A DNA stretch of 64,000 bases. It comes from a virus. Below are positions 3,980 to 61,228 of this stretch, in pieces; the first letter of the stretch is position 1; each line of letters opens with the position of its first letter. The stretch covers positions 32,001 through 96,000 of IMG/VR virus record IMGVR_UViG_3300013126_000014; one strand, written 5' to 3'. The notes under the pieces were generated by a model. It was not told where the DNA came from. It did not search any database and worked only from the letters and a program-made list of their open reading frames with translations. A program made the position numbers and the translations under genes.

Positions 3980-4015
3980 CTAAAAACTCCTATTGTAGTA
4001 TTTAGCTGGATTAAA

Positions 4016-4742: not shown

Positions 4743-4750
4743 ACTTATTC

Positions 4751-5359: not shown

Positions 5360-5403
5360 TATTTGATCCAGTTTACATTATTTATCATCAACGCTACAGA
5401 TAA

Positions 5404-5431
5404 AAAAATAGCACCCGCAGGTGCTATTTTT
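5404..5431 (-). terminator. Intrinsic terminator (symmetrical)
   Basis: AAAAATAGCACC-cgca-GGTGCTATTTTT just downstream of gene 5443..6099. Confidence 0.85.
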
Positions 5432-5442
5432 ATGAGAGTAAA

Positions 5443-36830: not shown

Positions 36831-39800
36831 ATGGCACTAAGAAAAACCTTAAAGTTTTTACCTGAAATATTTCAAACCGATGCAAATGATAAATTCTTGT
36901 CGGCTACGTTGGATCAATTGATATCAGAACCAGAGTTAAAAACCGTCAATGGCTATATTGGTAGAAAATTTGCACCCACATATAAGTCTAAAGATAGTTA
37001 TGTCACTGAAAACACATCAGATCGACAAAATTATCAACTTGAGCCAAGTGTTGTTGTTCGAGATGAACAATCTAATATAACATTTTTTAGCAGTTATATT
37101 GATCTATTAAACAAGATCAAGTACTATGGCGGTATTACAAATAATCATAGTCGATTATTTAATAATGAATTTTATAGTTTTGATCCTGGTGTTAGTTATG
37201 ATAAGTTAATTAACTTTACACAATATTATTGGTTACCCAATGGTCCCGATTCTGTTGCTGTAAACACCTCTGGGGTAGCAACTGAAGAAACCTTTACAGT
37301 TACTCGAAACCCTACGACAGAAACATATACCTTTACAACTTCTACAGGTTTGGTGTCTGATACTCTTACATTAGCACGTGGTGGTACATATTATTTTGTA
37401 GTCAACCAACCGGGGGTTCCATTTTGGATACAAATTGAACCCGGAGTGGATGGAAAATTAAACGCTACACCTACTATTAGTAATCGAGAAGTGCTGGGTG
37501 TAACAAACAACGGAACTGATGAAGGGACTATTACTTTTATAGTGCCGCAGAGTGATGCACAAGATCGTTTCCTGACCATGGGAACGGTATTCAATGTTGA
37601 CTATGCTACTCCATTTTATTCATTACCCTATAATAATCTGCACAATAAATTGCGTAGCCAATTTCTTAACGCATATCCTCAGTATGCTGGTATTACCGGT
37701 AACCTGGATGGAAAACATTTAGTTTTTGTTGACCAAACTTTGGCTACCAACTTTGGCGAGGAAGCATGGACCGCAGAAGAAGTATTAGATTTAGATCTTA
37801 ACCCTATTTTAGGATGGGGCGAAGGTGACGTAGTTCCAGTCAACCAACGAAATGGTGTATGGAAGATAATATTAGTTGATGTTGGTGTTGATAATGATCC
37901 TTTAATTAGATTAGTGCCAGTACAGGATATTGAAGTAGACGAAAAAGTTTATGTTAAGTATGGATTGGGGAATGCTAATCGAGAATTTTACAAAGAATCG
38001 GACGGATTTTTATATAGAGTCCCAGTAATATCAACAGTACAAGATACTTTATACTTCCAAGATGCTGTTAAAACTAACATGTACGGTGATTTAAAAATCA
38101 TTGAATATGCAGGTTGGAATATTGATGTAGAACAAGATATTTTAGGTAAAAAAACATATACAAGTCCGAATGGCGTCAAATTTACCAGTGGCCTTAAAAT
38201 TGAATTTGGATCTGATGTAACCCCAACTAATTATCAAAATAAACAATACTATGTAGAAGGTGTGGGCGACGCAATTCGGTTGGTAGACGTCACATTATTA
38301 GTAACACCAGAGCTATATAACGATGAACTAGAGTTAAATTATCCAGATCAGTCATTTCCTGATTATGTTACAATCAATAGAAGTGCCTTAGATTTAAATG
38401 CTTGGTCACGCAATAATCGTTGGTTCCATCGAGATGTTATTACTGCTACCGCTAGGTACAATAATACTATCCCAGTATTTGACCAAACTTTGAGAGCACA
38501 ACGACCAATTGTTCAATTTGAGGGTGATTTTCAGCTATATAATTATGGTCGAATCGGTAAGCGTCACATTGATGTGCTTGACTTAACTACCACCGATGCA
38601 TTTAACCAACTTGAAGGTGAAATTTTTGACGTAGCTTTAGGAACTACATTGTTTGACGGTATGCGAATTTTATTTGCCGCTGATAATGATCCATTGGTTC
38701 GAAATAAAATTTACGTATTAAATTTAGTAGAATATGAAGAAGGAACCCCAGGCGACCCAGTTTTACGTATTAAACTCAACATAGCTGAGGATGGTGAAAA
38801 TTTAGAGTGGGATAGTGTAGTAGTACTACAAGGACAGTATAAAGGTAGCCATTGGTGGTTTGATGGTACCAATTGGAATGAAAGCCAACAAAAGACCGGG
38901 TTAAATCAAGATCCGTTATTTGAAGTACACACTCAAACTGGTGTAAGTTTGTCCACCTATCCTCGCAGTTCTTTTGCAGGAACTAAGATATTTGGATATA
39001 AGAGACCAACAACTGGCACTGAAGACAGTATACTAGGATTTGCACTAAGCTATCGAAATTTTGGAACTCAAGGAGACATAGAATTTCAAAACTATTTTGA
39101 TACTGATACCTTTAATTATGTGATAGATCAAGAAAGTTATACTCCGCATATTAATACAGGATTCTTAGTAAAGATTATTGATAGAAATACTGTAGCGCAC
39201 CGCAACATGTGGAAAACCGTAGTTGAAGAAAGCAAGCAGTATCAAATTCTTAATTACAGTTACACAAACTCAAATACGTTTATTTTAGATGTTATTCCTA
39301 ATCCAAATGAAGCATCTATACCGTACTTAAAAGTCTACGTTAATAATCAACGACTAAATCCATCTAACTGGGTCTTTGACAGCGCAAATAACTCTGTTAC
39401 AGTTAATGTGATCTTATCTACAGACGACCGTATAGACATTTTAGTATACAGTGAACAAGTTAGTACCCGTGGTAACTATGAAGTCCCACCTAATTTAGAT
39501 TTAAATGCACAAAACGTTGATATAGATTCGTTAACATTAGGCCAGCTTCGTAACCATTTAGTTTCATTAAGTCAAAATAGTAAAGATCTAATAGGCGAAG
39601 TTTTGGCCGCAAGTAATCTTCGAGATCTTGAAGTTAAGTCGCAAGGCGGTAATATCTTACAGCACAGCGCCGGCGTTCCGTATGCAAGTTTATTTTTATT
39701 AGATGATACAGCAAATTTCGTTGACGCGGTTCGATATACCCAACGCGAGTATGCTAAATTTAAAAATAAATTTTTAGAATTAAGTGCAAGTCTGACAGGA

Positions 39801-42800
39801 ATTGACCCTACCAATCCTGCTGCAAGCGTGGATTTGATCTTAACAGAAATGAACAAGATTAAAAACTCAACATTCCCATGGTTCTATAGCGACATGGTAC
39901 CGTACGGTCCTTTAAAAACAATAGTAGCAGACGGTTATACTGTGTTTGACCCCACTGTACGATCTTATGAAATAACCAACGTCTTTAATAGTCAACAATT
40001 GAGCAACAAGGCTGTATTAATATACTTAAATGACGTTCAGTTAGTAATAGGTAATGACTACACCTTTGATACAGATCGCCCGGCTATTACGTTCAACGAT
40101 AATCTTGAATTGGCTATAGATGATGTTATTAAAATTGTTGAGTATTCAAACACCGATGGTAATTATATCCCTGAGACCCCAACTAAGTTGGGGCTGTATC
40201 CTAAATTTGTTCCTGAGATATTTTTAGATGATACCTATAGAGATCCAATAAATGTAATCAGAGGGCACGATGGCAGTGTAACTCCGGCATTTGACGACTA
40301 CAGAGATAATTTTATACTTGAGCTAGAGAAACGAATTTACAATAACATTAAATTGCCCGAAACAGAGTTGCCAAGAGAAATCTATAATGTTATCCCTGGC
40401 AAATTTAGAGACAGCGATTATACAATATCTGAATTTAATAGTATTCTATCAGGTAGCTTCTTAAGCTGGATTGGTAATAATAGATTAGATTATTCAAGCA
40501 ACGAAACATTTGAAAGCAATGATCCGTTCACATGGAATTACAGTCGATTTGTTGATAGAATCGATGGCGAGCCTCTGCCAGGTAGCTGGAGAGCATGTTT
40601 CCAATATTTCTACGACACCGACAGTCCCCACTTAAGACCTTGGAAGATGTTGGGCTTTAGTAGTAAACCAGACTGGTGGGAAGGATATTACGGCCCTGCA
40701 CCGTACACCGGTGGGAACACTTTGCTGTGGGATGATCTAGAAGTTGGACGCATTGTAGACGGTGATCGTGCTGGTACAGACGCAAGATTTGCTCGTCCGG
40801 GTTTGAGTCAGATTATACCTGTAGACGAAAACGGCGGGTTGATTAGCCCCGCAGGGATCTTAACAAAAGCATTTAATAGTAGTAACGCCGCTACGGCCTG
40901 GGCGGTAGGCAATCAAGGACCAGTTGAAACTGCATGGCGCAGAAGCAGCGATTATCCTTATGCAATACAAATTGCAATGGCTTTGGCAAAACCTGCAAAA
41001 TATTTTGGGCTGTTTATTAATGCATTTAATTACAGTAAAAATAATGATTTAGACCAATACCTAACCGCAGAAAATCACCACTTAGTTCAATCTGCAATTA
41101 ATATCAATGGCGACCGCAGCGGTGGAGTTGTTGTTCGGTCTGCAGGTTATCTAAATTGGATCGCAAACTATCTAACCAATATGGGGGTTAATCCAGTTGA
41201 AAAGATTAGTTCGATGTTGACAAATTTCACAGTAAATCTGGCCTACAAAATGGCTGGGTTCACCGACCAAAGCTATGTTCAAGTATTGGCCGAACAAAGT
41301 AGTCCAAGCAGTACCAATGATAGTGTAGTTGTACCCGCAGAGAACTACAAGGTTCATTTATATAAATCAACCCCAGTGGATCGTATAAATTACAGTGCGG
41401 TGATTGTTGAAAAAACAACAAATGGATTCACTGTTCGCGGGTATAATTTATTAAATCCGTATTTTACAATTATACCAAGCACAGTTAACAGTAACGCAAC
41501 TAAGATCAAAGTACTTGACAGTGAAGGGGTAGTGTATTTTGACTATAAACCAATTAAGTTAACTGTTCCATACGGTTACGAATTTAAAAATCAACAACAG
41601 GTTGTTGACTTCTTAATAAGCTACGAAAGATTTTTAATTGCTCAAGGGTTTGTATTTGCAGAAATAGACGAAGCTCTTGCAGAAGTACGAAACTTTAAGT
41701 TGAGTGTTAAAGAATTCTTATTTTGGGCTCAACAAGGTTGGACTACCGGTAGTGTACTGGTGTTAAGTCCTGCAGGCGAAAATATACGATGCAACACTTC
41801 CGGTGCAATAGTTGATGGGATCCAAGATGATCAATATACAACAAAAGTATTAGATCAAAACTTTAAATTAGTTAAGAATAATAACTATAACGTAATGCGT
41901 AGCCCTACGGAATTTAAGCTATCGCTTACTAACGATCAAGTTGTTGGTTTTGTAGATTTAAATCTAGTACAATACGAACATGTATTGATATTTGACAATA
42001 CTACGGTATTCAATGATATTATATATAAACCAGAGCTTGGTAACAGACAATATCGATTGAAACTAATAGGACAAAAAACTGATAATTGGGATGGAAGTTT
42101 ATATGCACCAGGATTCTTATATAACTCAGGAGAAGTAGATGCATGGCAGTCTGGCAAAGATTACTTAAAAGGTGATCTGGTAGAGTTTAAAGATCAATTC
42201 TATGTGGCTTTAAATAATATTTCTGCAGCAGATGATTTTAAATTTTTAGATTGGAAGTTGGCTGATTACGGGCAGGTTCAAAAGGGATTACTAAGCAATT
42301 TCTCAAGCATAGCAGTGAAATCACAAAGTTATTACGATCCGTATGGATATTTCAATGATGCAGACCAAGTTAAGTATAGTCACGGGTTAATTGGATTTAA
42401 ACCTCGACAATATTTAGATGATCTTGGAGTCAACGAAACTAGCCAAATTGAATTTTATAAAGGGTATATTAGACAAAAGGGAACACCTAATGCATTTGAC
42501 GCATTAACTCAAGCGCAGTTTAATAATCTTGCCAGTGATATTAATTATTTTGAAGAATGGGCAGTGCGCATAGGTGAGTACGGTGCAGTTGACACAAATC
42601 CGTACATTGAAATCCCATTGGACGAAAAAGCGTTTTCAGTTAACCCAGCAACTGCTGAATTTGTATACGGCACACGTCGCAACGAAGGTGACGGCGTTAC
42701 GATCTTTAATAGCAGCCAACTTTATAGATTAACAGACCAGTACAATGGTAATATAGCATTAAATCGCGATAATAACAGCGACTATAGCAACGATATTCTA

Positions 42801-45800
42801 ACAGCAGGATATGTTAACATAGATGATGTCGACGCCACAATCTTTGATCTGTCAGAATTTTCAATGTTGAACGATAGATTAGACATAATTGGCAATGGAT
42901 ATAGTATATGGGTGGCTAAAGATTACACTCAAGATTGGAATGTATATCGTGTCACTGAAACGGATAATGATGTAATCTTCTTAACTAATGCATTAGATGG
43001 ATACATCACATTTACAACCAATTTACCTCATGGACTTTTGGTCAATAGCATATTTATGGTTAGAAATTTTAACGCTGCGTTCGACGGTTTCTATCAGGTA
43101 AATTCAGTGGACGATCTGACTAGAGTAACAGTGTCATACGCTGGGGATACTTCTGAGTTGTCAGAATTAAATGGTCGCGGGACACTGTTTGTACTGGATA
43201 GTTTGCGATTCCAATTTATGGAAGAGGCACGAAAATATGTTCCTCCACATGGTTGGAAAGAAGGAGAGAAGATCTGGATTGACTTAGATGCTCCGACTAG
43301 TTTTGTCCAAGGGCAACCATACGAAACAGGCAATAACCTGTGGAAAGTTTATGAAAAACGTATGCCATGGAATCTGAAACAGCAATTAACCAAAGGCGAA
43401 GAAGAATATGCTGCAAATGATGGGTTTGGCACTAGTGTAAAACTAAGCGCAGATGGGTTAATTGCTGTTACTGGTAATCCCCTTTCTGGTTCTACTGGTA
43501 CAGTTAGCACGTTTGCTAAAAATTCAACTAATGAATTTATACAGACATTTACTATTGTTCCGGATACTGGGAATGTATCAGAGTTTGGAACTAGTATTGA
43601 CCTATCTACTAATCGAATCGCAGTGGGCGCACCGGGCAGCAATAACGACAATGGTTACGTATATGTTTATAAAAAACTACAGGATGTAGCATCGTACGAT
43701 CGATCACAAGTGATCGTGGGTAACTTATCTGCATCTGGTGATCGATTTGGCTTTAGTGTAAGTTTAGACGAATTTGGCGAATGGTTATATGTTGGTGCTC
43801 CAGGAAATGACAAAGTATATATTTACGGATTGAATAAGAGTGTCACTGAGCGAGAACACGTAGAGTCTGTTAATAATTTAAATATCCTTTCGTTAAGCGC
43901 AAACATCACTGCAAATATTGGTGACCATATTACTCAACCTACTACAGGTGCTGATCTAATAGTTACGGCAAATGTGTCTAATGGAAGTAATGTAGAAGTA
44001 AGTGCATTAACTAATATTGTCACTGGGGTAAGTTCTGGCAACATCCAGATTGTAAATGTTAACATACACGGTGACCCTATAGCGATCACCAATGTAGCAA
44101 TTTATCCTACTGCTACATATACTTCGTCGACTCGAAATTCTATTAGTCTTTCATTCACCCCCGATGTTGCAGATGATGCAAATAGTCTACTAGTAACTAG
44201 CAGAGAGCGTACATACATACCAAATGTTGACTATACACTTAGTGGAACAACAGTAACATTTTCAGCTAATATAGAACAAAATGATATTAGTATCAAGCAA
44301 GCACCATATTACTCATTGGTATCAACAGTACAGGGCGCCGCGGGTAGCGAATTTGGATATGTAGTTGACAGCAGTTATGACGGAGCACAACTTGGGGTTG
44401 GTGCACCAAACGAAACAGTTAACGTAGGTATAAGAACTGATGGAATTAAAGTTGCTATACCAGTAGGCACGGCAACTGCGAATATTGTTAGTTATACTGA
44501 GTATGTTGGAGCAGGCGCAGTATTTATATACGATCGTGTAATTGAAGCATTTGAAAGCACAGGCAATCAAGATTATACTACAAACGGTACTATCGGAGCA
44601 GTGCATAAGGTTACAATTGATAACATTGAAATTCCATTTAGTGAGTACCAAACATCGTTCACTACCCCATCACTGGCAAATAACGTAGTTAGATTTATTA
44701 CTCCACCAGACGTTGGTAAAGTTGTTTATATAGAAACTAACGAAATTAACCTACTAGAGAAATTAATAGGTATCGACAGCCTTGAGGGCGGCCTAGAAGC
44801 TATTCAGAGCGGCGCAAGATTTGGTACTAGCTTGACAATCTGTTCAAACAACTGTGCATTTTACATTGGCGCTCCGTATTACAACAACGGCACAACATAC
44901 AACACTGGCGCAGTTTGGAAATTCCATAGTAGAGGTCGGTTATATGGTACTAACACAGGCTACGCAATTAACCCAACATTTGCTCCAAACGATACAATCC
45001 GATTAGATAACTTTGAAGTTCGAGTTAATCTTGGATTAAGCGGAAACATATCAGTGACCACTGGTGATTTTATTACACAACCTAGTTCAGGCGCAAACGT
45101 TGCTGTCACTGAGGATACCTCTGGAAATTATATTAAAATTTCAGATTACGCCGACGCTAATGTATTTGTTGTTGGTTCTGGAAACATCTACGTGAATGGT
45201 GCTGATGCTAATGTAACTGTACGATCAACAAGTTTAGATGAATTTGTTGAAGATATTAATTCAGCTGATTTACTAGGCATTACCGCAACAAATGAAGGCG
45301 GTAAATTAAGAATTGACTCAGACAAAACTGTGGCCAAAAACTTGTTACGTATTCTATCTGGTAGAAACATATCAGCGAACCCACAAGGCGTATCAAATGT
45401 TTACTCGTCGGCTGAACTAGCGGTATTTGCGTTCATGCAGATTATTATCAATCCGTACAACTCAACTAACGAGTATTTTGGTAATAAAGTTATTTTGGCA
45501 AGAAACGCTTATATGTTGGTAATTGGTAGCGAGCGTGGTACCACTAAAAAATATACAACATTTGACGATGCAACTACTACATTGGATAGCGATTCTACTG
45601 CGTTCTTTGACAGCATCAAAGGCAGCGGTAGTGTATACATTTATGAATTATACGATGATCCTCGAGACGAGGTTGAAAATCCAGGGCGATATGCTTTTGC
45701 ACAGCAACTCAACCCAGGTGATCTAAATCCGGGCGATCGATTTGGAGCCGCAGTTGATATCGTAGGAGACACAATTATTGTAAGTAGTCCAGGCGACGAT

Positions 45801-48800
45801 ACTACATTGACTGATGCAGGAAGTGTATACATATTTGAAAATCCTACTAGAACCAGAGGTTGGAACTTAATAAGATATCAACAACCTAAAGTTGATACAG
45901 ATAGTGTGAATCATATTTTCTTATACAATAAAAATGCTAATACCATTTTAACTAACTTAGAATTCATTGATCCAGCTAAAGGAAAAATACCAGGGTTAGC
46001 AGAACAAGAAATTGACTATAAAACAGCTTACGACCCTGCCAAATACAATCGAGGATCCAATCCTCGAACAGCGGTTAATTCTGATCTGTACTGGGGCGCT
46101 GAACAATTAGGGCAAGTTTGGTGGGATTTAGATCGTGTTCGATATATTGACTACGAACAAGATTCGTTAACATATCGTTCTATTAATTGGGGTAGATTGT
46201 TCCCAGATAGTACTATAGAAATTCTTGAGTGGGCCGAAAGTGATGTCTTACCTAGTCAATATGTTGATACATACCCAAATCGAGGCGTACCTAAATACCA
46301 AGACGATAGTGCATACGTTGAAGTGAGTTATGTTGATAGTTTAACTAATAACATTACAAGTAAGTATTATTTCTGGGTGGGCGGAAGAACTGATCTGGAC
46401 ACTGTGACTGCTCCAAATCGTCGATTACCGTTAACAGTAATTTCCTCATTGATAGAAAATCCTAAATCGGCTGGTGTTGCTTATGCTGCTATTGTGCAGA
46501 ATAATGCTGTGATTTTATATAACGTAGGCTCATACCTAAGTGCCAGCGATACTATTTTACATCTTGACTACGAAGTTGTTAAAAATAACAGTATAATTCA
46601 CAGTGAATATGAACTGATACAGAAAGGTAATGCTTTAAGTTTTGTTCCGGCTAAAATATTAAACAAATTGATTGATAGTTTAAGCGGCATTGATGCCGCA
46701 GGCGCAGTGGTTCCGGACCCTAAATTAAGTGTAGCAGATAGATTGGGGGTCGGATTCCGCCCACGACAAAGTATGTTTGTTGATCGGTTAGCTGCTATGA
46801 ACGATTTAGTTCAGTATGTTAACGGTATTTTAATTAAGAAACCAATTGCAAGACAATACGATTTAACAAAACTGAATTCTGCAGAGCCTATGCCCAACGC
46901 AAAACTTGGTGAATACGACCAACTAGTGGCCACAGAAGAGGCATTGGCTTATATTGATGTTACAAATCTACCTGTAGGCTACAAAATATTAATTGAGACG
47001 GATACTACTCAGGACAATTTATGGGTACTATACACCTTAAATCAAGATTTAGTGTGGGAAATTGCCCGAGTACAATCATATAAAACAAACCTGTATTGGG
47101 AATATGTCGACTGGTACGCAGAAGGATATGATAATACTATACAAGTGGACTATGCAGTTACTACTATTATTGATGCACTGAAATTGCAGGCAGAACCAGG
47201 CAGTGAAATTCTTGTTCGTGTTGAACTAGGCGAAACTGGCGGCTGGAATATCCTTGTTGTTAACGACCAAGGCGGATTTGATGTTGTGGGTATTCAAAAC
47301 GGTACCATACAACTTAAATCAAATCTTGGGGACTTTGCTAACAATGAATTAGGATTCAGTAATCAAGGGTTTGATGTTAACCGATGGGATCAAAACCCAA
47401 ACGTTGAGATTCGTTATATTATTCAAGCTCTTCACGAAGACATTTTTATTAATGAACTAGGCGCAGAAACTAATAAGCTGTTCTTTGTAATGGTTAACTA
47501 CCTATTCGGCGAACAAAAATATGTAGATTGGATCTTTAAAACTAGTTTTATTAGCGTAACGCACAGTCTGAGAGAATTAAATCAATTCCCTAATTACATT
47601 AAAGACAATCAAACCTACTACCAAGATTATATCAATGAAGTTAAACCTTACTCGACTAAAATTCGAGAATATTTAGTTGGCTACAACAGTTTAGACCTCT
47701 TTGAAGGTAGTGTAACTGATTTTGATCTGCCTCCATACTACGATACTGATACTAAAATATTTAGAAGTCCAAGCGGTGAGGAAGTAGTTAAAGATCAAGC
47801 ACTATGGCAAACTGATGTATACAGCCAATGGTACCAAAATAGAAATAATACTGTAGTAAGTATATTAGTTGAAGATGGCGGTAGTGGTTACACAGATGAG
47901 CCAATTATAACTATTATTGGCGGCGGTAGTGGTGTAACTTCAGCAACCGCAAGAGCTGTAATTGATTTTGACACTGGAGCAGTAACCAACATCATTGTTA
48001 CTAATCCGGGCAGCGGATACTTTGTAACTCCAACAGTGATAGTCAATGGATCAAGTACGGTTCCGGCACGTGCATATGCAGTGTTGCAAAATAACCAAGT
48101 TAGAAACATTAACACTACGTTAAAATTTGATCGTATTTCTTATACTAGCAGTGTAATAGATTGGTCTGCAAATACCTCCTTAACAGCAAACACTATAGTA
48201 AGCTATAATGGGGTAGGATATAGAGTTAATGCAAATATTACAACCGGTAGTAGCTTCAATCCTGACAATTACACAAGAGTAAATGCTAGCGAGTTTGACA
48301 ATGCTAATGACCGTATCATGGCATATTATGCACCAAGTGACACAATGCCTGCTCGAGATCTAGGGCAACTACTAAAAGGCATAGATTACCCTGGGGTACA
48401 GGTAACGGGATTAAATTTTGATCAACAACCTGGATATGATGGTGCTGGCGGCTTTGACAAAATATTATTTGACAATGTTCAATATGACGAAGATGGTAAC
48501 CCTATATTGGGCGACAGCACTGTAGATACATTAATCAGTAGTTTATATACTGATTCTACTCTAGGAACACGAGCAGAGGATATCAATTTAGATGGCGGAG
48601 AATACGTAGATGCTTATTCAAGTCATGCCCCGGAAGAACTTATCCCAGGGATTGTTTTTGATACCTTAGATATTCAAGTGTATACTAAAGTTGATTCTAA
48701 CGTGAATGTGTTAGGTTACAGAATATTCAATAATATGGTAAGAAATGAAAGCTTCTTGCGTATATCCAATGCGTTCTCAACATTGTTGGCGCAGGACTTA

Positions 48801-49799
48801 TTGATCACAGATACTGAGATTAAAGTCATTGATGCATCCAAATGTCCAGAACCGAGTCCAGGAACTGCTACACCTGGGGTGGTATTTGTTGGGGCAGAAC
48901 GCATTACATATTTTGTGAGAGATTTAACAACTAACACATTGAGCCAACTGCGACGTGGTACACAGGGTACTGGAACTCCGGCGGTGCATGCCGAGTTTAC
49001 TAAAGTGGTTGATGCTAGCCTAAATCAAGTAGTACCAAGTGTTACTAAAGGTAATGTTACATACACAACAACTACCTCAATTAATGCAACTAAATCTCCA
49101 AGTTTCAAACTGAAACTAACTGGCAATATTACGGCAAATGTTGGGGATGTGATTACTCAGGCAACTAGCGGTGCAAATGTTAGGGTAGTGGGTACTGATT
49201 GGGAAGATAGCGATACAATTTGGTATACTAGAAACTCAAACAACCCATTTGAATTTACAGATATTCAATTGCAGTTTAGCGCCAACTTGACAATATTTGC
49301 TGGAGACATCGTAACACAAGAATCTTCTTCTGCAAATTTAACTGTGATCACTACTGTATACGACACTGCTAATGTTATTCTGCGTTACAACTCACTCGAA
49401 ACACTTAATGTTAGTGGAGGCAATCTGTTAGTAAACGGTGTTGACTCTGGTTATACCGCTATTACAATATATGCCGATCCTGTAGCTACAAGTAATTTAG
49501 CAGTCAACGGCATATATACAACTGACATTTATCCAGTTAGCAGAACTATTCTTGGATCGGTGAATCAAAACGGCAATGTAACTGTGGGCGCAAACGCTAC
49601 TTTAGCGACAACAAGTATCTGGTACAATTTAGGTAATGGCACTACAACAAATACCGACGGAGCAGGATTTGATGGAGCAACCACTGAACAAGTTGACTTC
49701 CTGAGGGAATACCCAGCAACCTATACCATTGGTATAGTCTCTGAAGATGCGGTAAATATATTATCTACTGAAGATGATGAAATAATTATTGAGGAATAA
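36831..49799 (+). CDS. Giant baseplate/virion protein (4322 aa, gp7 position) with FG-GAP-like propeller repeats
   Basis: Single 12969-nt ORF after gp6; FG.S....VGAP repeats at about 43410-45840; GSGY..P.V repeats near 47860-48090. Confidence 0.8.
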   Translation: MALRKTLKFLPEIFQTDANDKFLSATLDQLISEPELKTVNGYIGRKFAPTYKSKDSYVTENTSDRQNYQLEPSVVVRDEQSNITFFSSYIDLLNKIKYYGGITNNHSRLFNNEFYSFDPGVSYDKLINFTQYYWLPNGPDSVAVNTSGVATEETFTVTRNPTTETYTFTTSTGLVSDTLTLARGGTYYFVVNQPGVPFWIQIEPGVDGKLNATPTISNREVLGVTNNGTDEGTITFIVPQSDAQDRFLTMGTVFNVDYATPFYSLPYNNLHNKLRSQFLNAYPQYAGITGNLDGKHLVFVDQTLATNFGEEAWTAEEVLDLDLNPILGWGEGDVVPVNQRNGVWKIILVDVGVDNDPLIRLVPVQDIEVDEKVYVKYGLGNANREFYKESDGFLYRVPVISTVQDTLYFQDAVKTNMYGDLKIIEYAGWNIDVEQDILGKKTYTSPNGVKFTSGLKIEFGSDVTPTNYQNKQYYVEGVGDAIRLVDVTLLVTPELYNDELELNYPDQSFPDYVTINRSALDLNAWSRNNRWFHRDVITATARYNNTIPVFDQTLRAQRPIVQFEGDFQLYNYGRIGKRHIDVLDLTTTDAFNQLEGEIFDVALGTTLFDGMRILFAADNDPLVRNKIYVLNLVEYEEGTPGDPVLRIKLNIAEDGENLEWDSVVVLQGQYKGSHWWFDGTNWNESQQKTGLNQDPLFEVHTQTGVSLSTYPRSSFAGTKIFGYKRPTTGTEDSILGFALSYRNFGTQGDIEFQNYFDTDTFNYVIDQESYTPHINTGFLVKIIDRNTVAHRNMWKTVVEESKQYQILNYSYTNSNTFILDVIPNPNEASIPYLKVYVNNQRLNPSNWVFDSANNSVTVNVILSTDDRIDILVYSEQVSTRGNYEVPPNLDLNAQNVDIDSLTLGQLRNHLVSLSQNSKDLIGEVLAASNLRDLEVKSQGGNILQHSAGVPYASLFLLDDTANFVDAVRYTQREYAKFKNKFLELSASLTGIDPTNPAASVDLILTEMNKIKNSTFPWFYSDMVPYGPLKTIVADGYTVFDPTVRSYEITNVFNSQQLSNKAVLIYLNDVQLVIGNDYTFDTDRPAITFNDNLELAIDDVIKIVEYSNTDGNYIPETPTKLGLYPKFVPEIFLDDTYRDPINVIRGHDGSVTPAFDDYRDNFILELEKRIYNNIKLPETELPREIYNVIPGKFRDSDYTISEFNSILSGSFLSWIGNNRLDYSSNETFESNDPFTWNYSRFVDRIDGEPLPGSWRACFQYFYDTDSPHLRPWKMLGFSSKPDWWEGYYGPAPYTGGNTLLWDDLEVGRIVDGDRAGTDARFARPGLSQIIPVDENGGLISPAGILTKAFNSSNAATAWAVGNQGPVETAWRRSSDYPYAIQIAMALAKPAKYFGLFINAFNYSKNNDLDQYLTAENHHLVQSAININGDRSGGVVVRSAGYLNWIANYLTNMGVNPVEKISSMLTNFTVNLAYKMAGFTDQSYVQVLAEQSSPSSTNDSVVVPAENYKVHLYKSTPVDRINYSAVIVEKTTNGFTVRGYNLLNPYFTIIPSTVNSNATKIKVLDSEGVVYFDYKPIKLTVPYGYEFKNQQQVVDFLISYERFLIAQGFVFAEIDEALAEVRNFKLSVKEFLFWAQQGWTTGSVLVLSPAGENIRCNTSGAIVDGIQDDQYTTKVLDQNFKLVKNNNYNVMRSPTEFKLSLTNDQVVGFVDLNLVQYEHVLIFDNTTVFNDIIYKPELGNRQYRLKLIGQKTDNWDGSLYAPGFLYNSGEVDAWQSGKDYLKGDLVEFKDQFYVALNNISAADDFKFLDWKLADYGQVQKGLLSNFSSIAVKSQSYYDPYGYFNDADQVKYSHGLIGFKPRQYLDDLGVNETSQIEFYKGYIRQKGTPNAFDALTQAQFNNLASDINYFEEWAVRIGEYGAVDTNPYIEIPLDEKAFSVNPATAEFVYGTRRNEGDGVTIFNSSQLYRLTDQYNGNIALNRDNNSDYSNDILTAGYVNIDDVDATIFDLSEFSMLNDRLDIIGNGYSIWVAKDYTQDWNVYRVTETDNDVIFLTNALDGYITFTTNLPHGLLVNSIFMVRNFNAAFDGFYQVNSVDDLTRVTVSYAGDTSELSELNGRGTLFVLDSLRFQFMEEARKYVPPHGWKEGEKIWIDLDAPTSFVQGQPYETGNNLWKVYEKRMPWNLKQQLTKGEEEYAANDGFGTSVKLSADGLIAVTGNPLSGSTGTVSTFAKNSTNEFIQTFTIVPDTGNVSEFGTSIDLSTNRIAVGAPGSNNDNGYVYVYKKLQDVASYDRSQVIVGNLSASGDRFGFSVSLDEFGEWLYVGAPGNDKVYIYGLNKSVTEREHVESVNNLNILSLSANITANIGDHITQPTTGADLIVTANVSNGSNVEVSALTNIVTGVSSGNIQIVNVNIHGDPIAITNVAIYPTATYTSSTRNSISLSFTPDVADDANSLLVTSRERTYIPNVDYTLSGTTVTFSANIEQNDISIKQAPYYSLVSTVQGAAGSEFGYVVDSSYDGAQLGVGAPNETVNVGIRTDGIKVAIPVGTATANIVSYTEYVGAGAVFIYDRVIEAFESTGNQDYTTNGTIGAVHKVTIDNIEIPFSEYQTSFTTPSLANNVVRFITPPDVGKVVYIETNEINLLEKLIGIDSLEGGLEAIQSGARFGTSLTICSNNCAFYIGAPYYNNGTTYNTGAVWKFHSRGRLYGTNTGYAINPTFAPNDTIRLDNFEVRVNLGLSGNISVTTGDFITQPSSGANVAVTEDTSGNYIKISDYADANVFVVGSGNIYVNGADANVTVRSTSLDEFVEDINSADLLGITATNEGGKLRIDSDKTVAKNLLRILSGRNISANPQGVSNVYSSAELAVFAFMQIIINPYNSTNEYFGNKVILARNAYMLVIGSERGTTKKYTTFDDATTTLDSDSTAFFDSIKGSGSVYIYELYDDPRDEVENPGRYAFAQQLNPGDLNPGDRFGAAVDIVGDTIIVSSPGDDTTLTDAGSVYIFENPTRTRGWNLIRYQQPKVDTDSVNHIFLYNKNANTILTNLEFIDPAKGKIPGLAEQEIDYKTAYDPAKYNRGSNPRTAVNSDLYWGAEQLGQVWWDLDRVRYIDYEQDSLTYRSINWGRLFPDSTIEILEWAESDVLPSQYVDTYPNRGVPKYQDDSAYVEVSYVDSLTNNITSKYYFWVGGRTDLDTVTAPNRRLPLTVISSLIENPKSAGVAYAAIVQNNAVILYNVGSYLSASDTILHLDYEVVKNNSIIHSEYELIQKGNALSFVPAKILNKLIDSLSGIDAAGAVVPDPKLSVADRLGVGFRPRQSMFVDRLAAMNDLVQYVNGILIKKPIARQYDLTKLNSAEPMPNAKLGEYDQLVATEEALAYIDVTNLPVGYKILIETDTTQDNLWVLYTLNQDLVWEIARVQSYKTNLYWEYVDWYAEGYDNTIQVDYAVTTIIDALKLQAEPGSEILVRVELGETGGWNILVVNDQGGFDVVGIQNGTIQLKSNLGDFANNELGFSNQGFDVNRWDQNPNVEIRYIIQALHEDIFINELGAETNKLFFVMVNYLFGEQKYVDWIFKTSFISVTHSLRELNQFPNYIKDNQTYYQDYINEVKPYSTKIREYLVGYNSLDLFEGSVTDFDLPPYYDTDTKIFRSPSGEEVVKDQALWQTDVYSQWYQNRNNTVVSILVEDGGSGYTDEPIITIIGGGSGVTSATARAVIDFDTGAVTNIIVTNPGSGYFVTPTVIVNGSSTVPARAYAVLQNNQVRNINTTLKFDRISYTSSVIDWSANTSLTANTIVSYNGVGYRVNANITTGSSFNPDNYTRVNASEFDNANDRIMAYYAPSDTMPARDLGQLLKGIDYPGVQVTGLNFDQQPGYDGAGGFDKILFDNVQYDEDGNPILGDSTVDTLISSLYTDSTLGTRAEDINLDGGEYVDAYSSHAPEELIPGIVFDTLDIQVYTKVDSNVNVLGYRIFNNMVRNESFLRISNAFSTLLAQDLLITDTEIKVIDASKCPEPSPGTATPGVVFVGAERITYFVRDLTTNTLSQLRRGTQGTGTPAVHAEFTKVVDASLNQVVPSVTKGNVTYTTTTSINATKSPSFKLKLTGNITANVGDVITQATSGANVRVVGTDWEDSDTIWYTRNSNNPFEFTDIQLQFSANLTIFAGDIVTQESSSANLTVITTVYDTANVILRYNSLETLNVSGGNLLVNGVDSGYTAITIYADPVATSNLAVNGIYTTDIYPVSRTILGSVNQNGNVTVGANATLATTSIWYNLGNGTTTNTDGAGFDGATTEQVDFLREYPATYTIGIVSEDAVNILSTEDDEIIIEE

Positions 49800-49801
49800 T
49801 A

Positions 49802-50878
49802 ATGACAATTAAAATTAGTCAACTGGGGAATGTTACAACGGTATTAGGCAATGTACTAATGCCTCTGGTAGCAAACGTTGCAGGAACCCTTACTACTGTC
49901 AAAGGCAATGTTGATCAAGTTAAAACATACATTTTAGGTACTATAGAATCTGATTTGGCAAATTTAACAGCAAATGCAGGGTCACAGGCGGATAGTATTT
50001 CATCATTGACAGCTAACGCCGCAGTGCAGGCAGGATTAATTGCTGATCTATCAGCTAATGCTGCAGTGCAAGCAGGGCTACTATCGGGATTAGAAGCCAA
50101 CGCAGCATCTCAATCAGGATTCATTGCTAATTTATCTAGCGGGACTGCAACATTTGGTAATTTAGTACCAAGCGCAAATGTAACATATAGTTTAGGTAGC
50201 CCATCAGCCCAATGGAAAGATTTATATCTAAGTGGCAGTACCATTTACATTGGTGGCGCTGAAATTAGTATTAGTGGTGGTACAATTCAAACTACCTTAC
50301 CAATATCTGCAGATATTACAGCAAACACGTTGACAGTAGCCGACACACAGCTTACATTCAGTCAAGGTAGTTACATAGATGAGACCGAAGTTGCAGGACA
50401 ACCGGGAGTATATGGCCTAGCACTAAACAGCCCAGATGACGGTATTGTGGGAATGAACGCATTAGATTCCAATGCCACAGTAACTTCAAGTGTTATTGTG
50501 AGTAATGTAAGTGTACAGGTTAATGTACAAAATACTAGCGACACTGCAAACGTACACGTGTGGGCTTATTTAGAAGACGGGTCGTTATTGTGGCCCGACC
50601 TTACAGTGCAGGCCACTGCATTTACAGCAGAGTATGTAACAGCTATTACTGATACAGAGGCAAATGTATCAGTATTGCAAGGAAATGTAGCAGCGCATGA
50701 TGTTCGGCTTGGTAACCTTGAGGTCAATGGTGCAAACATTCTGGTTGACATTTCTACTTTACAAAGTAATGTAGAATTTACTATGTCAAATCTTACTCAT
50801 TGGACTAGCAACGTAACTACTATCAATGATGCGTTAAACCAATTAGCTGAAAGAGTTTGGAATTTAGAAAATCCTTAA
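49802..50878 (+). CDS. Fibre/whisker-like virion protein
   Basis: IKISQL N-terminus, 14-aa repeats, LVPSANVTYSLGS...WKDLYLSG module, C-terminal coiled coil. Confidence 0.7.
   Translation: MTIKISQLGNVTTVLGNVLMPLVANVAGTLTTVKGNVDQVKTYILGTIESDLANLTANAGSQADSISSLTANAAVQAGLIADLSANAAVQAGLLSGLEANAASQSGFIANLSSGTATFGNLVPSANVTYSLGSPSAQWKDLYLSGSTIYIGGAEISISGGTIQTTLPISADITANTLTVADTQLTFSQGSYIDETEVAGQPGVYGLALNSPDDGIVGMNALDSNATVTSSVIVSNVSVQVNVQNTSDTANVHVWAYLEDGSLLWPDLTVQATAFTAEYVTAITDTEANVSVLQGNVAAHDVRLGNLEVNGANILVDISTLQSNVEFTMSNLTHWTSNVTTINDALNQLAERVWNLENP
49958..50134 (+). repeat. Four 42-nt (14-aa) coding repeats L.ANA..QA..I..
   Basis: LTANAGSQADSISS / LTANAAVQAGLIAD / LSANAAVQAGLLSG / LEANAASQSGFIAN. 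Confidence 0.85.
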
Positions 50879-57504: not shown

Positions 57505-57841
57505 ATTTTTGGCAGCACTACTGGCATTGCAACCTATAGTCGAAGAACCTATAGAATATAGAATTTATTATAATGAAAATGGGCGGATAACTCAATGCAG
57601 CTTGCGAGGGCATCCTAAAGACGGTAACTATCTAGTCGTTACCGCTGAAGAGTATAACAACTATTTTCGCTATACTGTAGTAGAAGGTAGGCTGAAAAGA
57701 ATTGACGTCGAGCATAACTTTCATGTAAAATTAACAAAGGCAGATTGCGGATATAAAGTAGTTAAAAATCACGCCGGTATCTTAATTGAACCAAATGAAA
57801 CCTATAAGTATATAGAATATTATGACAACAGAAATAATTGA
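57482..57841 (+). CDS. Hypothetical protein
   Basis: 119-aa ORF overlapping both neighbours. Confidence 0.7.
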   Translation: MKMSSESEFLAALLALQPIVEEPIEYRIYYNENGRITQCSLRGHPKDGNYLVVTAEEYNNYFRYTVVEGRLKRIDVEHNFHVKLTKADCGYKVVKNHAGILIEPNETYKYIEYYDNRNN

Positions 57842-58718
57842 CGTAGCAGATTTAGATTGTATATATCTGAGTTACGATGAACCTAAAAAAGAAGAGTTCT
57901 GGGTGCAAATACAAAATATTGTACCTTGGGCAAAACGTATAGACGGAGTTAAAGGAAGTGATAGAGCACACAAAGCTGCTGCTTCGGCAAGCGACACTGA
58001 GCGGTTTATTCTTATTGATGGGGACAATATTCCTGATCCTAACTTTTTTAATTTGCAGCTTGGTCTTAATAGCACTAACCGTGACTGTGTGTTTCGTTGG
58101 CGTGCAAAGAACGCGATCAATGGTCTACAGTATGGCAATGGCGGGTTGAGCTGCTGGACCCGTGCATTTGTACAGACTATGCAGACACACGAAGCTAGTG
58201 ATGGATCAGCTGCAAATGATGTAGAGTTTTGTTTCTACCCAAACTATTGGGCCATGCATGACTGCTATTCAACAACCTATCCCGACCAAAGTCCATTTCA
58301 GGCATGGCGGGCAGGTTTCCGCGAAGGTGTTAAGATGTGTTTAGATCGTGGAACAAGACCTAATTTATCAGAGTTTGAACAACGTGTACACAGTCGCAAC
58401 TATGATCATTTATGTATTTGGCAGACCGTGGGTGCAGATGTTGAGAATGGCTTTTGGGCTATATATGGCGCACGTCTTGGGACGTATATGACAATGTTAG
58501 AAGATTGGGATTATCGTAAAGTGCAAGACTTTGATGCGCTTGCATCGCTGTGGAATGTGTACAATAATGCACAACCTGAGCACTGTACTAATATTGGCAA
58601 CGAACTGCGAAACAAATTGGGTTTGCCTATAGTAGATATGGACCCAGAAGAAAGTAAATTTTTTAAACACCATTACAAGAGTAATTTCCGTAATCGAGGA
58701 ATAATGACACGTGAGTAA
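57822..58718 (+). CDS. Glycosyltransferase-like (GT-A) protein
   Basis: LSYDEP...GVKG...AH..AA....ERFILIDGDN (DxD); QAWRAGFRE. Confidence 0.6.
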   Translation: MTTEIIDVADLDCIYLSYDEPKKEEFWVQIQNIVPWAKRIDGVKGSDRAHKAAASASDTERFILIDGDNIPDPNFFNLQLGLNSTNRDCVFRWRAKNAINGLQYGNGGLSCWTRAFVQTMQTHEASDGSAANDVEFCFYPNYWAMHDCYSTTYPDQSPFQAWRAGFREGVKMCLDRGTRPNLSEFEQRVHSRNYDHLCIWQTVGADVENGFWAIYGARLGTYMTMLEDWDYRKVQDFDALASLWNVYNNAQPEHCTNIGNELRNKLGLPIVDMDPEESKFFKHHYKSNFRNRGIMTRE

Positions 58719-60111
58719 AAGCGTGTTTATGTCGGCAGCAGAACAAATGAAGGACCAGTTAGGACCGGCACTCTGCCTGGCCAAGTGGCAACAAGTTAGT
58801 CTACATTTGGGCACCGGTATGACTAATAGTTGTTACCATCCACCGTTGCATGAAATTGATCCTACTCCTTTACTAGCCAATCCTAGTGCGTTACATAATA
58901 CATCTTACAAAAAATCTCAACGTATTATTATGTTAAAGCAAGAACGCCCGGGGGAATGCAGTTATTGCTGGAGTGCAGAAGACAACGGGCACTTGAGTGA
59001 TCGACACTATCGCAGCGGTGAGCCATGGGCCGCAGAACACTTTGACACGATTGTAAACAGCCAAGGCAACGAAGATGTTACACCAAGTTATGTTGAAGTA
59101 AACTTTAGTAATGTATGCAACCTTGCGTGTTCGTATTGTAGTCCGCAGTATTCTACAGAATGGGCAAAGGATGTAGAACGTTGGGGCGCATATCCTACGA
59201 GCAATAAACATAATGATCCGGTTTACTTCCAAGGTCGTCGCAAATCCATTCCGAATCGTGAACACAACCCATATTTAGAAGCATTTTGGCGTTGGTGGCC
59301 CGAATTATATCCTAAATTAAAACACTTCCGTATGACCGGCGGTGAACCTCTTATGGATAAAAACACACACCGCGTGTTTGATTACATTCTAAACAGTTTA
59401 CCAAACAAAGAGCTACATTTAGATGTTACTAGTAACTTTAGTGTAGTTCCTGAGCTGTTTAACCCTTACTTAGAAAAAGTCAAACAATTATGTGAAGGTG
59501 ATTATGTTGAACATTTTATGCAGTATGTAAGTTTAGACAGTGGCGACCCGATGCAGGCCAGTTATATTCGCAGAGGTATGGGCAATCATCGCGTAAACAC
59601 ATACGTCCATCGTTACTTAACACAGATACCTAACCGTAACAGTTTAACCTACATTATTACAATGAGCAACTTAAACATTTTAGGGTTAAAACGCTTACTT
59701 GAGCATATATTAGAATTACGCCAGCTACACAGTCACACCTATCAACGTGTTTGGTTTGATACACCGTTGTTACGTAGCCCAACATGGCAAAGTTTACAAA
59801 TACTCCCACAAAGTTATTGGGAGATATTGGAAGATAGTGTTGTTTTTATGAAACAAAATCAGATGTCCGAAGAAAGTTTTGTAGGATTTAAAGACTACGA
59901 AATACAGCGCATGGAACGTAACCTAGCATGGATGCGTCAAGGACGAGAGTTGGAACCCACATATATAGAACAACAACGGGCTGACTTTTACCGTTTCTTT
60001 AGTGAATATGATAAACGCAGCGAAACACAGGGAATAACAAGTTTCTTAGAAACTTTTCCTGAGATGAAAGATTTTTGGCAAGAGTGCAAATGGCATGCAG
60101 AAAATTCCTAA
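58711..60111 (+). CDS. N-terminal Twitch-domain radical SAM protein 1
   Basis: CLAKW...SCYH...CSYC, then CNLACSYC and GGEP. Confidence 0.9.
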   Translation: MSKSVFMSAAEQMKDQLGPALCLAKWQQVSLHLGTGMTNSCYHPPLHEIDPTPLLANPSALHNTSYKKSQRIIMLKQERPGECSYCWSAEDNGHLSDRHYRSGEPWAAEHFDTIVNSQGNEDVTPSYVEVNFSNVCNLACSYCSPQYSTEWAKDVERWGAYPTSNKHNDPVYFQGRRKSIPNREHNPYLEAFWRWWPELYPKLKHFRMTGGEPLMDKNTHRVFDYILNSLPNKELHLDVTSNFSVVPELFNPYLEKVKQLCEGDYVEHFMQYVSLDSGDPMQASYIRRGMGNHRVNTYVHRYLTQIPNRNSLTYIITMSNLNILGLKRLLEHILELRQLHSHTYQRVWFDTPLLRSPTWQSLQILPQSYWEILEDSVVFMKQNQMSEESFVGFKDYEIQRMERNLAWMRQGRELEPTYIEQQRADFYRFFSEYDKRSETQGITSFLETFPEMKDFWQECKWHAENS

Positions 60112-61228
60112 GACATTTTGTCCTGCCAAATGGGAAGAGATACATGTTAACTTTGGGTTTAATTATGTGTTTGCTTGCTGTAAAGCAACACCGATCCGAT
60201 TTGTTAACAACATCAATGAAGTACTTGGCCCACAACGGCAAAATTTACTAAATGATATACAGGATCCTAGTTGTAATTATTGCTGGTCGATGGAAAATCA
60301 AGGTCATGCGAGTCGCCGGCACGATTACCTGTCAAAGAACAACAACGATATTTCTATCTATAGGGAAAATAAATCTAAAACTAAGATGGTGGAAATTAGT
60401 TTAGGGAACGAGTGTAATTTTCAATGCGGATATTGCAATCCTAAATTTAGTAGCCAATGGGAAAGTGATGTTAATTCAAAAATATATCCAGTATTTACTG
60501 ATAGATTTTTTTATGCGTTAGATGAAAAAAATAAAAATACAATCGTTGATACAGTAAATTGGTTGTCTGAGGTTGAAGATCTAGATACGTTATCTATTGT
60601 TGGCGGCGAACCTTTATTGAATAAAAACTTTTTTAAGATAATTGAAAAAGTTAAATCAAATAAATTGGGATTTGCGACTAATTTATCTTGTAGCCAATTA
60701 AAAATAGATCAAGTATTAGAATTAGCAAATCATTACAGCGATATCAGCTTAAGTGTAAGCATAGATTCTACAGGCGAGCTAGCAGAATTTACTCGTTACG
60801 GCATGAACTGGGATACTATGCGGGATAATTTGTTATACCTTGTGACTAACAGCCCTAAGAATGTAAAAATTAATTTATTATCTCTTATGACAAGTTCTAC
60901 CATAAGAGGACTCAAAGAGATGACTCTCTTTGTTGAAAGACTGTATAATATTAATAACAATCTTGTTTGGCAATTATTTGATTGCAGAGATCCAAAGATA
61001 CATAGCATGTTAACGTTACCAACTGAGATGAAACCAGAAATACTTAAACAGTTGGATATAATAAACACAATGCCAAACACTGAATTTGCAGAATTGGTTC
61101 AAAATAGTATTATTAATAGCAAATTTAATAGAACTATGTATAAAGAATTACAGGAATTTACTAATGAATTTAGCCAACGTAAAAATATAGAGGTACCAGA
61201 ATGCCTAAAAGACCTCAAGAAACCTTAA
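60095..61228 (+). CDS. N-terminal Twitch-domain radical SAM protein 2
   Basis: CPAKW...ACC...CNYC, then CNFQCGYC and GGEP. Confidence 0.9.
   Translation: MQKIPKTFCPAKWEEIHVNFGFNYVFACCKATPIRFVNNINEVLGPQRQNLLNDIQDPSCNYCWSMENQGHASRRHDYLSKNNNDISIYRENKSKTKMVEISLGNECNFQCGYCNPKFSSQWESDVNSKIYPVFTDRFFYALDEKNKNTIVDTVNWLSEVEDLDTLSIVGGEPLLNKNFFKIIEKVKSNKLGFATNLSCSQLKIDQVLELANHYSDISLSVSIDSTGELAEFTRYGMNWDTMRDNLLYLVTNSPKNVKINLLSLMTSSTIRGLKEMTLFVERLYNINNNLVWQLFDCRDPKIHSMLTLPTEMKPEILKQLDIINTMPNTEFAELVQNSIINSKFNRTMYKELQEFTNEFSQRKNIEVPECLKDLKKP

Follow-up and report, generated by a model that had tools for sequence, protein, structure and literature searches.

Why should a single asparagine-centered tripeptide dominate the fibre proteins of an uncultured phage? 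The question is raised by a 64,000-nucleotide stretch of viral DNA (positions 32,001 to 96,000 of IMG/VR record IMGVR_UViG_3300013126_000014; hereafter the window), in which a single open reading frame (ORF) at 49802–50878 on the plus strand encodes a fibre-like protein of 358 residues that we refer to as p358. A preliminary description of the window had counted 22 of the 32 Asn residues of p358 within the motif [AGS]-N-[VILA], and had proposed that the motif is a sequon for dense post-translational modification by the products of a neighbouring operon, giving a shielded virion. Our analyses reproduced that count exactly but lead us to favour a different explanation, to which we assign a probability of roughly 0.6, namely that the motif serves a structural purpose and is a hallmark of the modules from which the trimeric fibres of this phage lineage are built.

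The Motif Is Overrepresented in the Fibre Proteins

We compared the number of motifs in each of 45 window ORFs with the numbers in 2000 composition shuffles of the same protein. For p358 the expectation was 3.63 motifs (standard deviation 1.76; z 10.4), and the observed count was equalled by none of the 2000 shuffles, bearing out the enrichment that had been suspected from manual counting. The tail fibre of 1176 residues encoded at 449–3979 on the minus strand (p1176) is indeed dense in the motif, as had been noted, with 45 of its 107 Asn residues in it (expected 10.3, z 11.7), and a fibre of 1594 residues encoded upstream of the window has 41 of 154 (z 7.2). In the giant protein of 4322 residues encoded at 36831–49799, the motif accounts for 39 of 360 Asn residues (z 4.1).

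The small virion proteins encoded at 4440–6099 had also been called dense in the motif. This is correct for the 202-residue virion-protein-like ORF at 4751–5359 (minus strand; 8 of 21 Asn residues, z 4.6) and for the 218-residue ORF at 5443–6099 (minus strand; 5 of 10, z 3.8), which has weak matches to fibre and connector PHROGs, but not for the 100-residue ORF at 4440–4742, where the excess is not significant (3 of 10, z 1.9). The remaining 39 window ORFs, which include those for the capsid, portal, protease and baseplate proteins and for every enzyme, all radical S-adenosylmethionine (SAM) proteins among them, had z values between -1.2 and 1.7, in agreement with the earlier impression that the motif is sparse in the enzymes and the portal. 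The sheath-like protein, encoded outside the window, has the motif at 8 of 68 Asn residues (z 0.9). Because the capsid and sheath carry no excess, the idea of a shielded virion is not supported.

The excess in the fibres is real and specific to Asn. When all residues were considered at the central position of [AGS]-X-[VILA], the only one enriched was Asn, by 6.1-fold in p358 and by 4.4-fold in p1176; no other residue exceeded 2.2-fold. Similarly, the class-tripeptide (small, N, aliphatic) ranked first of 704, 1024 and 1088 class-tripeptides in p358, p1176 and the 1594-residue fibre, respectively, with z values of 9.2, 10.7 and 6.4, compared with 3.1 to 4.2 for the runner-up classes. Removal of the three 14-residue repeats of p358 (residues 72–113) left 18 of 28 Asn residues in the motif (z 9.8). 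The codons that make up the motif are diverse, with 11 used before the Asn, both Asn codons, and at least eight used after it. Tripeptides of the canonical N-glycosylation type, N-x-S/T, number 10 vs. an expected 6.5 ± 2.1 in p358, where any enrichment is mild, 35 vs. 23.3 ± 4.1 in p1176 and 64 vs. 53.3 ± 6.7 in the giant protein.

p358 Is Predicted to End in a Trimeric Coiled Coil

The AlphaFold2 (AF2) monomer model of p358, built from 16 sequences (mean predicted local distance difference test score, pLDDT, of 63), has helices at residues 37–112, 276–329 and 341–356, and beta strands in between. The motif is unevenly distributed among these parts, as it is present at all 12 Asn residues of residues 1–126, at 3 of 8 in the beta-rich middle domain (residues 127–275; 50180–50626), where the excess is weak (z 2.6), and at 7 of 12 in residues 276–358 (50627–50875). 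The long predicted helix at residues 37–112 (49910–50137; block pLDDT up to 90) is made up of 14-residue repeats of the type L-x-A-N-A-A-V-Q-A-G-L-I-x-x and has six motif Asn residues (54, 58, 72, 86, 100, and 110), with Asn spacings of 14, 14, and 14. Overall, the spacings of motif Asn residues are 7, 8, 11, 14, 14, and 14 in the N-terminal part of the protein and 7, 10, 7, 11, 7, and 7 in the C-terminal part.

We identified 127 homologs of p358 (E ≤ 0.001), among which the 14-residue repeats and the C-terminal heptads vary in number, and no Pfam family matching it. Across 15 homologs, the motif columns comprise 300 non-gap cells, of which 223 are Asn; the main replacements are Ser (16), Asp (16) and Thr (8). 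Residues 119–162 (50156–50287) comprise a conserved junction motif (FGNLVPSANVTYSLGSPSAQWKDLYLSGSTIYIGG; phrog_36222) of the type ...P-S-A-N-V-x-Y-x-L-G-S-x-x-x-x-W-[KR]-D-L-Y-L-S-G-x-T-I..., which is shared with p1176 at about residues 583–620 (window 2120–2231, where the Pfam match is to Phage_T7_tail) and with the fibres of many other phages. This element is present in at least 538 IMG/VR fibre genes and looks like a common joint between shaft modules.

Residues 276–358 are predicted to form a homotrimeric coiled coil with a fibritin-like heptad. When residues 270–358 were modelled in three copies, the interface score ipSAE was 0.80, vs. 0.00 for the best of three controls; in a benchmark of this score, the 0.80 mark was attained by 20 of 30 proteins whose solved structures are pairs of one chain, compared with 1 of 23 whose solved structures are single chains. 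Contact agreement between runs was at least 97 % and partner pLDDT at least 91 for the three-copy state modelled. This pass may partly reflect likeness to solved coiled coils, because coiled coils resemble many solved structures. In the model, core residues 289, 292, 296, and onward to 355 have an unbroken 3–4 spacing (a/d). Asn residues 288, 295, 323, 330, and 337 are placed at heptad position g, immediately before a, and contact the neighbouring chain (Asn 288, for example, contacts residues 289 and 293 of the next chain). Asn residues 305 and 312 are placed at c, before d, and are absent from the interface lists.

These models bear on two points of the preliminary description. It had raised the possibility that the Asn residues are buried in coiled-coil cores, and in the trimer model of residues 270–358 the helical Asn residues are at the flanking g or the outer c position, not in the a/d core. 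It had also described the motif in both coiled-coil and beta-type segments. The beta context holds for p1176 (see below), but in p358 the excess is weak in the beta-rich middle domain, and the C-terminal stretch that had been called beta is helical according to both the AF2 and the trimer models.

The heptad is not peculiar to p358. An alignment of 306 unique heptad-run windows from 120 family proteins has the consensus Leu/Ile (-3), Gln/Glu (-2), Ala/Ser/Gly (-1), Asn/Asp (0), Val/Ile (+1), x, x, with Asn at position 0 in 252 windows and Asp in 54. Hydrophobic residues peak at positions -3, +1, and +4, and the residue after the Asn is aliphatic in 81–83 % of cases, locking the motif to the heptad.

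The Motif in p1176, the Giant Protein and Related Fibres

In p1176 the motif is found mainly in beta-type repeats of the form G-N-[IVL]-[TS]-[IVL]. Aliphatic residues are enriched at positions -5, -3, +1, and +3 relative to the Asn, and Thr at +2, a pattern that resembles the alternation of a beta strand in which the apolar face carries the small residue and the polar face the Asn. In an AF2 model of residues 90–480 (22 sequences, mean pLDDT 60), 7 of 20 motif Asn residues are at, or one residue before, the start of a strand. Positional conservation in this region is high: of 412 cells in the motif columns across 21 homologs, 327 are Asn, and several columns do not vary at all. A phmmer search of the Protein Data Bank (PDB) with p1176 returned only chance matches to antibodies.

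The gene for the giant protein is situated between a gp6-like baseplate gene and the p358 gene, and its product has FG-GAP and CBM5/12 domains. A scan of motif density along this protein revealed a local cluster at residues about 2250–2860 (43578–45410, plus strand), within which are the three strings that the preliminary description had quoted from particular inserts (at residues 2355, 2379, and 2402). The densest cluster is at residues about 4000–4260 (48828–49610, plus strand), with 10 motifs among 21 Asn residues in one 200-residue window. The final ~300 residues are motif-rich, like the fibres.

Among the loci related to this one, 83 of 586 ORFs of at least 200 residues attain a z of 6. 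In related environmental fibres the motif is denser still, and is arranged in repeats of 9, 14, 18, and about 45 residues. A fibre of 2404 residues from one such locus (L075), for instance, has the motif at 147 of 292 Asn residues, and had no match in the PDB by phmmer. The repeat architectures of some environmental fibres (L027, 2690–6433, and L075, 9995–17209) are extreme. One such fibre has 9-residue units, e.g., A-N-I-G-A-Y-Q-T-Y-A-N-A-N, alternating with 14-residue units, and another has 18-residue units, e.g., A-N-V-S-G-Q-V-N-F-A-A-T-A-N-A-V-A-G.

A Probable Structural Role for the Motif

How might one tripeptide serve the architecture of these fibres? In the helical parts, the motif would correspond to positions f-g-a (or b-c-d) of a coiled-coil heptad of the fibritin type, with Leu/Ile at d, Gln/Glu/Thr at e, Gly/Ala/Ser at f, Asn (sometimes Asp) at g, and Val/Ile at a. 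The Asn would then be located immediately before a core residue, flanking the core and touching the neighbouring helix, and we infer that hydrogen bonding by this uncharged residue may replace the g-e' salt bridge that is usual there. In the beta-rich shafts, the motif would be a Gly-Asn turn, presumably with beta-turn geometry, leading into a short strand with an aliphatic residue at its first inward-facing position. The fibres of this abundant lineage of uncultured giant aquatic phages are composed of modules without a solved relative, and the one conserved tripeptide that marks them is useful for spotting these fibres, setting their heptad register, and guiding structural work.

A Radical SAM and Sugar-Enzyme Island Follows the Fibre Genes

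Directly behind the fibre genes is an island that runs past the end of the window, as far as position ~111,000 of the record, whose length is 117,787 bp. Within the window it includes four tandem N-terminal-twitch radical SAM genes (58711–63872, plus strand) that match NF033640 over its curated 170-bit cut-off, and there are six such genes in the record. The genes further downstream encode additional radical SAM proteins (one with a B12-binding domain), a carbamoyltransferase, a DegT aminotransferase, and an NDP-sugar epimerase/dehydratase, and the island also has a dCMP-deaminase-like gene.

The preliminary description had named this an operon of glycosyltransferase and radical SAM genes, and of these two components only the radical SAM genes were verified. 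We detected no glycosyltransferase family at E ≤ 0.001 in Pfam searches with 44 window ORFs and the 33 ORFs of the rest of the record. The sole lead to a glycosyltransferase of family 2 (GT2) type is the 298-residue ORF at 57822–58718 (plus strand), whose match to Pfam Glyco_tranf_2_3 (PF13641; E 0.028) is below the cut-off, and whose nearest atlas cluster is automatically named GT2-like (score 0.99). Its homologs include proteins of the related record G007 (69 % identity) and of Ralstonia phage RsoM2USA (40 %).

A passage of PMC7029224 on the fibre region of pelagimyophages describes radical SAM cassettes together with glycosyltransferases, which are ascribed there to host-surface modification, and aspartyl/asparaginyl beta-hydroxylase is listed in the same source as a pelagimyophage core gene. 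We considered beta-hydroxylation of Asp/Asn as a candidate modification and rejected it, as PF05118 has no match in this record (34 % complete) or in G007 (92 % complete), and only a sub-threshold match in Pelagibacter phage HTVC008M.

Two other radical SAM genes (20242–21342 and 24143–25723) flank SbcCD-like (gp46/gp47-type) genes, far from the main island. One of them is SPASM/twitch-related, and the other is related to B12-dependent methyltransferases.

Motif Density and the Island in Other Phages

NF033640 proteins over the cut-off are present in 22 of the 25 IMG/VR records that hold relatives. In our cross-genome comparison, this record, with six, had a maximum motif z of 11.1, and G007, with eleven NF033640 matches, had a maximum of 8.3. 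Vibrio phage K566 has two NF033640 proteins over the cut-off and a maximum z of 4.7. RsoM2USA (MG752970.1), a cultured phage with a genome of 343,806 bp, has two NF033640 proteins together with homologs of the GT2-like (40 %) and a 282-residue (37 %) protein. Its compact island core, at about 216.7–221.1 kb, consists of a twitch radical SAM gene flanked on both sides by GT2-like homologs, with the homolog of the 282-residue protein slightly further away, and its second twitch radical SAM gene, at 126.9–128.2 kb, has a product 50 % identical to that of window 61201–62565. The maximum motif z in RsoM2USA is 2.8, and none of its 136 ORFs of at least 250 residues attains a z of 4, which argues against a sequon.

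HTVC008M lacks twitch radical SAM genes and has a single radical SAM match of another kind; its maximum motif z is 4.9. The complete record G012 has no radical SAM match and a genome-wide maximum of 4.3. The motif excess in the fibres of these two phages is 2–3-fold. Two other records without NF033640 are G017, whose maximum z was 1.6 in the 20 kb read, and G016, which has enriched fibres (z 8.4) and is uninformative because it is a 14 % fragment. In the 60 kb of phage T4 read, where no such island was noticed although no search aimed at it was made, the maximum was 3.1, for gp5. A further 48 IMG/VR records, surveyed with six small loci left out, included eight with a match in the island search; these records are fragments of 2–21 % completeness, and are too fragmentary for absence to be judged.

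The preliminary description had raised the question of whether relatives lacking the operon would have the same motif density. In phages without the island the density is lower, rather than equal (maximum z 4.3–4.9 vs. 8–11). Moderate enrichment thus occurs without the island, and the island core occurs without enrichment.

Structure or Modification?

The combination of moderate excess in HTVC008M and G012, which have no twitch radical SAM genes, with an island core lacking excess in RsoM2USA supports our assignment of a structural role to the motif, as do the heptad spacing, the predicted trimer register, the constancy of the Asn positions among homologs, and the T4 parallels considered below. 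Several observations weigh against this assignment, however. One and the same tripeptide recurs in helical, beta, and unassigned contexts, and a purely structural explanation therefore needs two or three separate rationales. The Asn form is not in excess in the T4 fibre proteins gp34, gp36, gp37, and gp12 or in fibritin (z -1.3 to 1.2), and so fibres in general do not have the density observed in this phage. The strongest densities (z 8–20) were seen only in the lineage carrying the large twitch radical SAM/sugar island, and the NF033640 family is found in nearly all of the records holding relatives (22 of 25). The modelled Asn residues would be chemically reachable, as they are not buried in the model. 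The structural evidence also has its limits: the AF2 monomer models are of modest confidence (mean pLDDT of 63 for p358 and 60 for p1176 residues 90–480), no solved structure matches either fibre by sequence (for p358, no PDB chain at E ≤ 1 by phmmer), a Foldseek search with the p358 model produced no fold match at E ≤ 0.001, and the register obtained from the trimer model covers residues 270–358 and not the N-terminal 14-residue repeats.

Of the other explanations for the motif, the one that survives best, although we think it rather improbable, is that [AGS]-N-[VILA] is an acceptor for modification of Asn, most plausibly by an unusual N-linked sugar, installed by the fibre-linked island, with the fibres being decorated rather than the whole virion. 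Such a role would fit an Asn-specific motif that is the top class-tripeptide outlier and is found in several structural contexts, at modelled sites (g, c, or strand starts) that would be reachable. It would also fit the arrangement of fibres and island in one block on the same strand, the distribution of NF033640 (over the cut-off in 22 of 25 records, and absent from the low-motif G012 and G017), the GT2-like lead at 57822–58718, and the DegT aminotransferase, NDP-sugar epimerase/dehydratase, and carbamoyltransferase genes downstream. There is also a precedent in the chloroviruses for virus-encoded N-glycosylation at atypical sites, as described in a section of PMC9614988.

The cross-genome comparison weighs against this role, since RsoM2USA, despite its two NF033640 proteins and its homologs of the GT2-like and 282-residue proteins, has no ORF at z 4 among 136, K566 with two NF033640 proteins reaches 4.7 at most, and HTVC008M (4.9) and G012 (4.3) are enriched without twitch radical SAM genes. 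Kinship alone can explain the co-occurrence of strong motif and island in the few genomes compared; the two are confounded because all of the strongly enriched records look like one lineage. The residue itself is also exchanged, with Asp at the same heptad position in 54 of 306 windows and in T4 fibritin, and Asp, Ser, and Thr replacing Asn in homologs. In addition, no glycosyltransferase exceeds a curated threshold, N-x-S/T is only mildly enriched (10 vs. 6.5 ± 2.1 in p358), and the strict positional conservation of the motif is unlike that of glycan-shield sites, which drift. The modification sequon of the preliminary description is a proposal that our results weaken but do not refute, and they yielded no positive evidence of a modification.

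A broader form of the same idea, which we consider more doubtful again, is that throughout a large clade of uncultured aquatic giant T4-like phages the motif is the site at which the island, with its twitch radical SAM, GT2-like, and sugar-nucleotide enzymes, attaches an unusual group to dozens of Asn residues per fibre chain. Were this to be true, it would be the phage counterpart of the atypical N-glycosylation of chloroviruses and the first dense Asn-linked decoration of a phage fibre, and a radical SAM/sugar island that is widespread among phages would have its missing substrate in this motif. Our literature searches found no paper on a motif or modification of this kind in the fibres of phages.

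A third explanation, and in our view a very unlikely one, concerns the helical segments and would have their Asn residues occupy the core d position of a trimeric coiled coil and coordinate buried anions there, forming N@d layers as in trimeric autotransporter adhesins. Leu is found three residues before 10 of the 32 Asn residues of p358 (2.9-fold), and L(a)xxN(d)xxxQ(a)xxL(d) is a possible reading of the 14-residue repeat. However, the trimer model has the Asn at g (or c), followed by the aliphatic residue at a (or d), by which N@d core layers are rejected for residues 270–358 and only the N-terminal repeats are left as candidates. Furthermore, the residue after the Asn is aliphatic in 81–83 % of family heptads, whereas in about half of the adhesin cases it is Thr, according to a passage of PMC13580157.

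Finally, although A, G, S, N, V, I, L, and T are abundant in the fibres, which also contain repeats of 14, 18, and 45 residues, we can practically dismiss an artefact of composition or of internal tandem repeats, given that composition-preserving shuffles still leave z values of 10–12, a single class stands out among 704–1088 class-tripeptides, and z is 9.8 with the 14-residue repeats taken out of p358, and likewise a DNA-level word, because the codons around the motif are varied.

The Phage and Its Record

The window is that of a T4-like myophage, with genes for a gp23-type capsid protein, a T4 portal, a prohead protease, and a late sigma factor, and baseplate genes of the gp25, gp53, and gp6-like types. 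The source record has an estimated completeness of 34 % (CheckV). As related records reach 320,767 bp at 92 % completeness, the phage is probably a giant one, with a genome of about 330 kb. The closest cultured matches to its fibres, such as HTVC008M, are partial only. A tblastn search with p358 and p1176 against 50,697 phage records returned partial matches (to HTVC008M, a Limnohabitans phage, and three metagenomic records) and nothing more, and therefore no cultured phage among those records carries these fibres.

Two ORFs are inserted among the structural genes of the window, one for a SegE-type GIY-YIG homing endonuclease (18832–19269) and another that is homing-endonuclease-like (6184–6675). 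In the fibre region upstream of the window, a small ORF (record positions 29018–29518) resembling 2-oxoglutarate-Fe(II) oxygenases (PF13640, E 1.4e-4, below the cut-off) sits between the gene for the 1594-residue fibre and a gene for a collar-domain fibre.

Comparison with Known Systems

Phage-encoded glycosyltransferases decorate virion proteins in mycobacteriophages, with glycans at the C-termini of capsid and tail-tube subunits (Freeman et al. 2023, as cited in a passage of PMC12619734). Those C-terminal sites on the capsid and tail tube are unlike an Asn motif in fibres. In chloroviruses, N-glycosylated Asn residues of the major capsid proteins are located at NTXT, NIPG, NVAT, NLTA, and NVGY, that is, outside N-X-S/T, as reported in sections of PMC9614988 and PMC5408694. 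The resemblance to the present system is in the virus-encoded sugar machinery and in the atypical Asn, which is followed by Thr or an aliphatic residue. The differences are that chloroviruses are viruses of eukaryotes with few sites, which are on the capsid, whereas the capsid protein here has no motif excess, and that the modification was chemically demonstrated in chloroviruses, whereas here it is a proposal.

With the N@d layers described for trimeric autotransporter adhesins (Hartmann et al. 2009, as cited in passages of PMC13580157 and PMC12933892; see also PMC4786415), the helical segments of p358 share an Asn in each heptad of a trimeric stalk (predicted in p358) and, three residues before it, an aliphatic residue. 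The two differ in that the p358 model has the Asn at g or c and the next residue is aliphatic, not Thr. The 9-residue period of the repeats in some environmental fibres recalls the alpha/beta coiled coils described in a portion of PMC4786415.

For the beta-type repeats of p1176 there is a parallel in T4 gp5, the only T4 protein tested that had some motif excess (6 of 34 Asn residues, z 3.1). Its C-terminus (VEGNGTIL VKGNVTII VEGNADIT VKGDATTL VEGNQTNT VNGNLSWK) is composed of octads, V-x-G-N/D-x-T-x-x, in which short strands are opened by Gly-Asn/Asp followed by x-Thr. This stretch of gp5 is a solved triple-stranded beta-helix. Unlike the gp5 octads, the repeats of p1176 are of 5–6 and about 45 residues, and its predicted fold is from AF2 at a mean pLDDT of 60.

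For the helical parts the corresponding T4 protein is fibritin (wac), a solved segmented trimeric coiled coil with assigned a and d positions. p358 differs from it in its beta-rich middle domain and in the lack of a recognizable foldon, and no sequence homology between the two was detectable (no match of p358 to a Pfam family, or to a PDB chain at E ≤ 1). The polar residue of fibritin is mostly Asp (7 Asp and 3 Asn), and the motif is present at a far lower density, although its Asp form, [AGS]-D-[VILA], is itself in excess (7 vs. 1.9 expected, z 3.9, p 0.0015). Nevertheless, the same heptad of aliphatic-x-small-Asp/Asn-Val/Ile-x-x-Leu recurs along the fibritin fibre, in units such as VSGDIEAL, IESDVGSL, VESDISAI, LRANVSWL, LQGDVQAL, and KGNISSL, and is consistent with the polar residue at g and the Val/Ile at a that are predicted for p358.

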